A program made the translations under genes and the position numbers. The notes below the pieces were generated by a model. It made no database searches. It was given only the letters and a program-made list of their open reading frames with translations, and was not told the DNA's origin. This document shows positions 55,701 to 57,491 of a stretch of 64,000 bases of DNA, in pieces. The first letter of the stretch is position 1; each line of letters opens with the position of its first letter. The DNA is from Flectonema sp. DT1601 (Eukaryota): contig OZ025790.1 of the NCBI GenBank assembly GCA_964019425.1, forward strand, positions 372,001-436,000, read 5' to 3'.

Positions 55701-57491
55701 CCTATCGGATTGGTGATGGAATCACTACGGAGAATGGGATGGAGCTGGGAATCACCGTTGGAAATCAAAACACCGACGAAGACCTTCAACATGAACGAGC
55801 TGGAACTGGGAGCCTGGCAGCACGAGATCCGTGAAAGCTGCAGGCTGATCGAGTGGAAGAAGGTCACTAAACAGAGAGTGAACCTGAAAGGAATCGAAAG
55901 CGGTATCGACAGAGGGGAAACCCTCCAAATACTGAAGTTGGAGAAGGGACTGCCGTTGGAAAGAGGGGTTGTCAGGAGCATTATGATGGACGACATCTTC
56001 ACCAATGAGAATGCCGGAGGTGGGGACAAGACGTGCAAGAACTGTACGGAGGATGGTGAGGAAAAGGTGGAATCCCTTGACCACAACTTCTGGATATGCA
56101 CATCATACGACGAAATCCGTTCTGAATTTCCTGACGTAATGCATGTTTACTCAGAATCCTGGCCACCATGTCTGAGACTCTGCGGGATAAAACCTCTGGA
56201 AATGGAACTTCCGAACGGAATCACTGGGAGGATGCAACTGATGTTGGCGCGAATCAGACTCGAGAGAGACAGAAGACGTTGCGATCGGACGGCACGACCG
56301 ACCACCACACTGAAATACGCCGGCGACTGGAGCTCCGAAGAGATGATCTCGTACCCCAACAACCTGGCCCGATACATGCCTAACTACCGAGCCTGGCCGG
56401 GATGCAATACGAGAGAAACATACCTCGCGATTGCAAGCTACTTGAACAGGATCAAGTGGGCGGCAAGGAAGGACGGGAACGGGATCACCTTCCTGGAAAT
56501 GGCGGTGGACTTCGAGATCTGCACGGGAATCAGATTGAAAGAAGCCACCACCAGCCACACCGAAAGCACCCACCCGATTTCAATGGACAAGAAATCGAGA
56601 ACCTTCGCCAACCTACTGGTGAAGATAGACAGGATCGCGAAGGAAATGGACGGACCGGACAAGAGAATCTACCCCGATGGCAACATCAAGGAAGTGATCA
56701 AATCTCTACGACCGCTGGACGGACCGAGAATTGCGGGAATCGACAGGAGATCGACGTTCCTCGGAGGTGAAGAATCTGCCCGGAAGGTGGAAGACCTGAT
56801 CTCGGACGCACACGAGAAGAAAGACCTGTACCCCGAACAACCTTTCGGCAGCAACACGTTCATCGAACACCCGCCGGGATGGGAAAAGAAAGCTGACATT
56901 TGGAGGAAGACTGCTTCCGAGGAACCCTCACCTGAATGGGATGCGAGATGGACGGTGATGCGTGAACAAGAGGACTCAGTTGTGGCCCCGGAGGAAGCAA
57001 CGAAGAGACCACCGCCACTAGGAAAAAAGCCACCACCGGTATGCAAACTTCACCGCAAGGGGAAGTGCGCGACATGCGACAACGCGGTGGAAGTGGCAAT
57101 CTACGAATGCTGCTACAACCACCACCGAAATGACGAATCGGACGGACTGACCCCCGTCTGGGACTTCTGTACGAAGCACAGAATGACGGCATGCGGGAGT
57201 TGCTACTCGCAGAGGAAGACAGCCGACACCTGCTGCGGGAAGTACCATCACAGGTGCAAACAACACGACAGACCGATCTGTCAAAGCTGCGGTCGCAACG
57301 CGAACCGGTCGCACCGACTGGCATCCTGGTGCTGCTCACACAAACACCACGGACAACTGCCACCGAAACCTGCCCCTAAACGGAAGACGAAGAAGGAAGT
57401 GAAGGGACAGGGAACCCTGCTGGGCCTTGGTTTCACCAAGGAAAAGACGGGAGACGTCGAGGGGAGACGGGAGGGTAAGGGCCTGACCTAG
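52758..57491 (+). CDS. Retrotransposon ORF2: AP-like endonuclease, reverse transcriptase, CCHC motif and Cys/His repeats (1577 aa)
   Basis: APE motifs ATVN, LVQET, GGDFN, RIDAV and THKPV. RT motifs AAGTDG, RPIT, QTGFR, DFKKCFD, QGCPLS and YADD. CKNC..HNFWIC. Start inferred from the ATGA overlap. Confidence 0.95.

Follow-up and report, generated by a model that had tools for sequence, protein, structure and literature searches.

An uncatalogued Cys/His repeat module at the C-terminus of diplonemid LINE ORF2 proteins, with a possible role in binding the element RNA

The window analysed here is a stretch of 64,000 nucleotides from Flectonema sp. DT1601 (contig OZ025790.1, positions 372,001 to 436,000), and it carries a long interspersed nuclear element (LINE) whose second open reading frame (ORF2) ends in three tandem units rich in Cys and His. 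Judging from sequence comparison, this repeat module is a real, uncatalogued and conserved family of C-termini of diplonemid LINE ORF2 proteins. We propose that it is a tandem two-zinc finger module which would bind nucleic acid, likely the element RNA, during particle assembly and reverse transcription, by analogy with the C-terminal fingers of L1Tc; in our opinion, the chances that this proposal is right are about even. The relevant parts of ORF2 are the following.

52758..57491, + strand: ORF2, 1577 amino acids (aa), no internal stop, with APE, reverse transcriptase (RT), CCHC knuckle, unannotated domain and Cys/His module
56034..56099, + strand: post-RT CCHC knuckle of the ordinary type, aa 1093-1114; weak Pfam zf-RVT matches in relatives
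57042..57125, + strand: Cys/His repeat 1, aa 1429-1456, N = 10; predicted two-zinc unit
57168..57251, + strand: Cys/His repeat 2, aa 1471-1498, N = 9; the best-conserved unit, H-R-[ML]-T-x-C-G-x-C
57255..57350, + strand: Cys/His repeat 3, aa 1500-1531, N = 13
57351..57488, + strand: ORF2 C-terminal tail, basic and of low complexity, directly after repeat 3

All three units (57042-57350) match C-x2-H-x4-C-x2-C-xN-CC-x2..3-HH, and together they form a module of 104 residues which lies 315 aa beyond the CCHC motif. The original prediction for this DNA had described the three repeats exactly, and we reproduce both its positions and its gap of about 300 aa. Using patterns composed after inspection of the sequence, we found the half motif C..H....C..C at the three module sites only in all six frames of the 64-kb window, and the full unit in none of 20000 shuffles of the whole ORF2 protein. 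When the module alone was shuffled 20000 times, three half motifs never appeared, two appeared in 7 shuffles and one in 499.

A phmmer search with the module alone against 1.84 billion representatives returned 46 protein clusters, and the repeat is present in every one of them. LINE ORF2 homology was found upstream of the module in 37 of these 46 clusters versus 0 of 920 shuffled controls; in the remaining nine the gene calls are chimeric, short or weak, and one of them includes an RT fragment. When ORF2 1080-1577 or alignment A1 was used in a word-index search, nothing beyond the element's own cluster came up, a false negative which was overturned by the HMMER scan. That cluster has 12 members, of which the four at full length are 99.4-99.6% identical to the window protein or are that protein itself. 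Among 17 carriers looked up, eight have named organisms and all eight are diplonemids (Flectonema neradi, Rhynchopus euleeides, Diplonema papillatum, D. japonicum and Lacrimia lanifica); the D. papillatum carriers belong to clusters of 68 and 24 members and are found on many contigs. A search with the RT region only gave 33 proteins, nine of them with the module and its ligands intact. The yield of true modules from a DNA pattern scan was 3 of 50 hits in metagenomes, 0 of 2 in viral sequences and 1 of 16 in prokaryotic genomes, the rest being low-complexity or off-frame chance matches. The prokaryotic hit (L064:1-1023) is a 1023-base contig of a bacterial metagenome-assembled genome which codes for the C-terminal portion of a LINE ORF2 with the module, and it is likely a eukaryotic contaminant.

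In alignment A1, none of the 26 rows deviates at any of the eight ligand positions of repeat 1, and the ligand positions of repeat 2 show either full invariance or conservation of at least 90%. The spacing over 115 units picked by pattern is C-x2-H-x4-C-x2-C-x5..14-CC-x2..4-HH, and both ligands and spacing are fixed across families with ORF2 identity of ~28-30%. A few non-ligand positions (R, T, G, P) are kept across families as well. When the pattern is applied strictly, three units are present in 28 of 50 carriers, two in 17 and a single one in five. Eight conserved Cys/His residues per unit would fit two zinc ions in a cross-brace arrangement. AlphaFold2 run on alignment A1 gave a mean predicted local distance difference test (pLDDT) score of 83.6, with 79-84 over the five models; from the single sequence the score was 44, and the alignment-based model was used instead. 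Given the eight ligand-type residues in each unit and the confident predicted model, a multi-zinc module, as the original prediction had it, is likely.

The module has no Pfam match at E up to 10 and no significant PDB sequence match, and structure searches with its model in PDB, VIA-wide, VIA second look and BFVD returned nothing significant. Hence the suspicion that it is not a standard LINE domain holds. It might also have been a known domain common in non-specific LINEs, and of this description one half applies, as it is common in related LINEs, and the other half does not, as it is uncatalogued. Ribosomal eL43 came up as a candidate relative (phmmer E 0.037) and was rejected as a match of the Cys pattern. 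No paper that describes this module, the structure of diplonemid LINEs or the targeting of protease genes came up in our literature search, with Repbase lying outside the search. On transposable elements, the relevant part of the D. papillatum genome paper says that their rigorous identification is still to come (PMC10161547).

How might such a module work? The fold of each repeat is likely built on two zinc ions: one Cys and one His from the CC-x2..3-HH helix that follows would complete the C-x2-H knuckle, and another such pair would complete the C-x2-C where a short helix begins. Such ligand pairing would amount to a treble-clef-like arrangement. The basic module and the basic tail would then bind nucleic acid, the main partner being RNA rather than DNA and most likely the element's own structured RNA. 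In this way the module may help to build the particle and to run target-primed reverse transcription, an accessory, chaperone-like job of the kind shown for the L1Tc C-terminal fingers. The choice of target, which here is a protease gene, would depend for the most part on something else, the APE domain for instance, which in elements of the R1 and Tx1 types is the main target determinant.

The composition of the module agrees with this proposal. Its net charge is +8 in the window ORF2; among 50 carriers the charge has a median of +5 and is positive in 47, and the 30 aa that follow it have a charge of at least +3 in 25 of 40 carriers. Lys or Arg stands at H+2 of repeat 1 in 43 of 50 carriers, Arg at H+1 of repeat 2 in 36 of 44, and Arg precedes CC of repeat 3 in 20 of 28. 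Such charge, together with a few basic and small residues that are conserved across families and fast divergence elsewhere, fits a zinc-held scaffold which would hold on to the phosphate backbone and leave the bases unread. At the end of the element lies a candidate for the RNA which ORF2 would bind.

57478..57570, + strand: structured 3' end of the element (fold z = -2.24; 2 of 200 shuffles fold as well)

No poly(A) stands before the target-site duplication at this end. Many ORF2 proteins end alike (xVT, xLT, xIT, xPT), and DNA conservation peaks just before the ORF2 stop (window 57478-57491; loci L014, L016 and L045). Probably an RNA signal of the 3' end overlaps the coding end of ORF2.

The model for the proposed role is C2-L1Tc of Trypanosoma cruzi, a set of C-terminal zinc fingers flanked by basic stretches, which in the portion of the literature consulted is described as RNA-preferring, non-sequence-specific and chaperone-active (PMC2805920). 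L1Tc belongs to the Ingi clade, and like the present element it is a euglenozoan APE-type LINE with tandem zinc fingers and basic stretches at the coding 3' end (PMC2805920). It also has a hepatitis delta virus (HDV)-like ribozyme at position +1 (PMC3185411), which here is predicted and has a sub-threshold Rfam match; and like Ingi/L1Tc (PMC3708506), some relatives here (P0085, P0086, P0095, P0118) have 2A-like peptides before APE. There are clear differences, too. The element in the window has a separate ORF1 and a post-RT CCHC knuckle and has neither RNase H nor a poly(A) tail, unlike Ingi elements, which according to the relevant parts of two reports have RNase H and poly(A) and no ORF1 (PMC3708506, PMC12278014). 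Thus the Ingi architecture of a single ORF with RNase H after RT and poly(A) is absent; there are two ORFs, and no RNase H match in Pfam. The L1Tc fingers are TFIIIA-like C2H2 fingers with one zinc, whereas the units here have eight ligand-type residues each. A C2H2 finger of the L1Tc/TFIIIA kind follows the one-zinc pattern C-x2..4-C-x12-H-x3..5-H and is detectable by Pfam zf-C2H2; the module units do not follow this pattern and have no Pfam match. An HDV-like ribozyme at +1 is not unique to Ingi.

The original prediction also suggested that the module could read the target DNA, and this has to be judged against the site where the element sits.

50020..50548, + strand: 5' half of host cathepsin-L-like gene A, with I29 propeptide and the start of Peptidase_C1
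50529..50548, + strand: target-site duplication, left copy, 20 bp
57571..57590, + strand: target-site duplication, right copy, 20 bp
57590..58390, + strand: 3' half of host gene A, with the remaining Peptidase_C1 and DUF3586
62526..63060, + strand: 5' half of host paralog B; its nucleotide identity to A is 78% (336 aligned bases)
63061..64000, + strand: 5' part of a second element copy, which interrupts paralog B at the same base and continues past the window end

The element is a 7022-base insertion (50549-57570) between the two copies of the 20-base duplication, and it splits gene A between the codons for CNGGL and MDQAF. Contigs of three out of three public runs join 50532 to 57575, skipping 7042 bases and showing few other differences, hence an empty site exists. 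In these three runs the host gene is present with next to no element cover, although contigs cannot show absence; at paralog B, no contig of the three runs bridges the junction unambiguously. Both copies of this young element in the window (50529-57590; 63041-64000) are located at the same base of diverged cathepsin-L-like genes, as is characteristic of a site-specific element. Because the element copies are 98.3% identical over 940 bases, versus 78% for the host halves, two insertions are favoured over duplication of one, with the caveat that genes A and B hardly differ in the 60 bases that precede the site. The GC content at third codon positions is ~0.4 near the target in both paralogs (50455-50548; 62964-63060) versus 0.6-0.9 upstream, and other paralogs in the public contigs use different codons in the last 60 bases before the site. 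Gene conversion, or co-evolution of host and element, at the target site is possible. For a site-specific non-LTR (long terminal repeat) element, a target that codes for a protein would be out of the ordinary. With the sequence-specific APE-type elements of the R1 and Tx1 clades (for example Keno), the element shares its APE endonuclease, a target duplication and the choice of one fixed base within a multicopy gene.

The module, however, does not keep to this target. The three true metagenomic carriers represent one family; their mutual similarity does not extend past the stop codon (34-38 of 48 bases agree upstream and 13-14 of 40 downstream), and their 3' flanks are non-protease and mutually different. 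Because of these flanks, the sequence evidence indicates that the module is not special to the protease target and is not its dedicated reader. The idea of target reading is therefore weakened, with the module present in many diplonemid LINE families and three carriers lying outside protease genes.

Several observations nevertheless weigh against our proposal of an accessory RNA-binding module. Two of the three metagenomic carriers share a loose, hairpin-like motif of 30 bases about 10 bases downstream. It could be a short 3' untranslated region or a preferred target, so that a target preference in that metagenomic family is possible; the three loci are one family only. Further, outside the ligands the module is just 26-31% identical to that of the three closest relatives, and the linker 23-32%, versus 45-47% for APE. 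One may argue that the module is a sequence-reading DNA-binding array, in which a shared zinc scaffold carries variable surface residues that set the target of each family, here the protease gene; the N-terminal fingers of R2, which read its target, are the model for this. The fingers are tandem and basic, their non-ligand residues diverge fast while the ligands stay fixed, the element is found at the same base of two diverged paralogs, and the shared downstream motif would also agree. On the contrary, the module occurs in the multi-copy D. papillatum families, the flanks of three carriers of one family are identical at no more than 13-14 of 40 bases, conserved basic and linker residues are common to the families, and no DNA-binding fold was matched. 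We consider such an array unlikely. Still somewhat less likely in our opinion is a broader version, according to which this binuclear zinc-finger family is the exchangeable target reader of a diplonemid LINE clade, steering the element into one protease codon while a 5' ribozyme frees its RNA from the host transcript. If this version were true, the target would be a protein-coding protease family, and no target of this kind is listed for site-specific non-LTR elements.

Aromatic residues, which base-stacking RNA fingers use, are nearly absent from the units (F 0.5%, W 0.3%, Y 1.0%). Moreover, the sole hints from structure and sequence searches, neither of them significant, point to protein-binding fingers: the top three Foldseek rows are TRIM5alpha B-box2 chains (best E 6.4, probability 0.02), and the unit profile against PDB gave a best E of 0.54, with the RBX1 RING at E 0.83-1.4. 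It is thus possible, although we would bet against it, that the module is a B-box/RING-like protein-interaction unit, which oligomerises ORF2, binds ORF1 or engages the host ubiquitin system. Like the binuclear treble clefs of B-box and RING, the units have eight ligand-type residues within ~30 aa, and their C-x2-H knuckle leads via x4-C-x2-C into a helix. The scarcity of aromatic residues and the OTU (P0031, P0043) or weak Josephin-like (P0118, E 0.012) domains at the N-terminus of ORF2 in relatives also suit a protein-interaction role. Binuclear treble clefs are described as permuting and as serving mostly protein and ubiquitin roles, as far as the section consulted goes (PMC4506424). None of the 26 module members, however, matched the Pfam families of B-box, RING, ZZ or UBR. 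Compared with the generally known ligand pattern of the B-box, the CC-x2..3-HH ending and the ligand order do not correspond unless circular permutation is allowed. Taken together, OTU or Josephin-like protease domains or 2A-like peptides stand ahead of APE in P0031, P0043, P0138, P0118, P0006, P0085, P0086 and P0095.

Finally, because 12 long relatives do without the module, it appears dispensable. We placed the relatives found in this analysis, without reference clade elements, on a quick RT tree of 39 rows (P0140 omitted as partial), which has SH-aLRT support only and an open backbone. Module carriers fall into five separate RT groups; 16 rows have the module, 12 are long and lack it and 11 were not scored; at least four changes are needed. 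Complete module-less proteins, P0121, P0125 and P0136 among them, are found inside supported groups together with carriers. An old module which was lost repeatedly is the simplest reading, although gain and loss are indistinguishable on this tree. One might go further and regard the module as a dispensable structural or metal-buffering appendage, or as a disulfide-rich or low-complexity stretch with no binding role, and the varying number of units among carriers would agree with that. We find this very improbable, given ligands and spacing that stay fixed across the divergent families, the conserved R, T, G and P positions outside the ligands and the confident predicted fold.

That LINE proteins may end in accessory zinc fingers is already known, but for the unit described here the libraries covered by our searches contain neither a catalogued family nor a solved fold. 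The module is also the mark of a large and undescribed group of LINEs in diplonemids, which are among the most abundant marine protist lineages, and its 104 confidently modelled residues are tractable for structure and binding work. As the insertion of one carrier is tied to a single base of a protein-coding gene family and other carriers are found at different places, the clade offers a natural experiment on which domain sets the target in APE-type elements. This bears on the evolution of LINE specificity and on tools for site-directed insertion.

As to the rest of ORF2, Pfam recognises Exo_endo_phos at aa 45-251 (E 2e-10) and RVT_1 at aa 612-828 (E 4.6e-24), and with APE N-terminal to a non-LTR RT within one ORF the element is an APE-type non-LTR retrotransposon. 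The best PDB sequence match of ORF2 is human L1 ORF2p (E 1.5e-17), with R2 next (2.6e-15). The order APE-RT-CCHC and the zf-RVT matches in relatives are as in the L1 group, whereas unlike in L1 the protein runs ~460 aa past the knuckle, a stretch which includes the Cys/His module and an unannotated domain. In plant L1, RNase H follows the knuckle, and some relatives here have RVT_3/RNase H after it as well. The similarity to L1 is remote and does not settle the clade of the element. The remaining features of the element are these.

50549..50613, + strand: predicted HDV-like self-cleaving ribozyme, beginning at the first base of the element
50851..52761, + strand: ORF1; putative start at the first in-frame ATG after the ribozyme
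56325..56837, + strand: conserved unannotated domain, aa ~1190-1360, between knuckle and module; W, E-x3-D-F, L and G conserved

The domain at aa 1190-1360 is also found in module-less relatives, and in some relatives RNase H is inserted within the region. We presume a likeness to LOTUS or winged-helix domains, which has no Pfam support. ORF1 has no Pfam match, and its stop overlaps the ATG of ORF2 (ATGA). It shares its reading frame with the 5' half of the host protease gene, so that read-through would yield a fusion of 913 aa (window 49999-52761).

The first 65 bases of the element fit an HDV-like double pseudoknot with a P1 of 6 bp, and so do those of the second copy (63061-63125). The match to Rfam RF00094 (HDV) has E 1.3 and is under the gathering score. 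A descriptor composed after inspection of the sequence gave hits at 50549 and 63061 only on both strands, and none in 20 shuffled windows. If active, the predicted ribozyme would release the element RNA from the transcript of the host gene.

Elsewhere in the window, positions 1-45000 are filled with dense nested repeats, including AT-rich tandem arrays (~4100-6900, 27360-30150 and 36240-38000) and dispersed units of 1-3 kb that are 95-100% identical. An ORF of 740 aa on the minus strand (32506-34728) contains Cys clusters and has no Pfam match; we take its look to be transposase-like.
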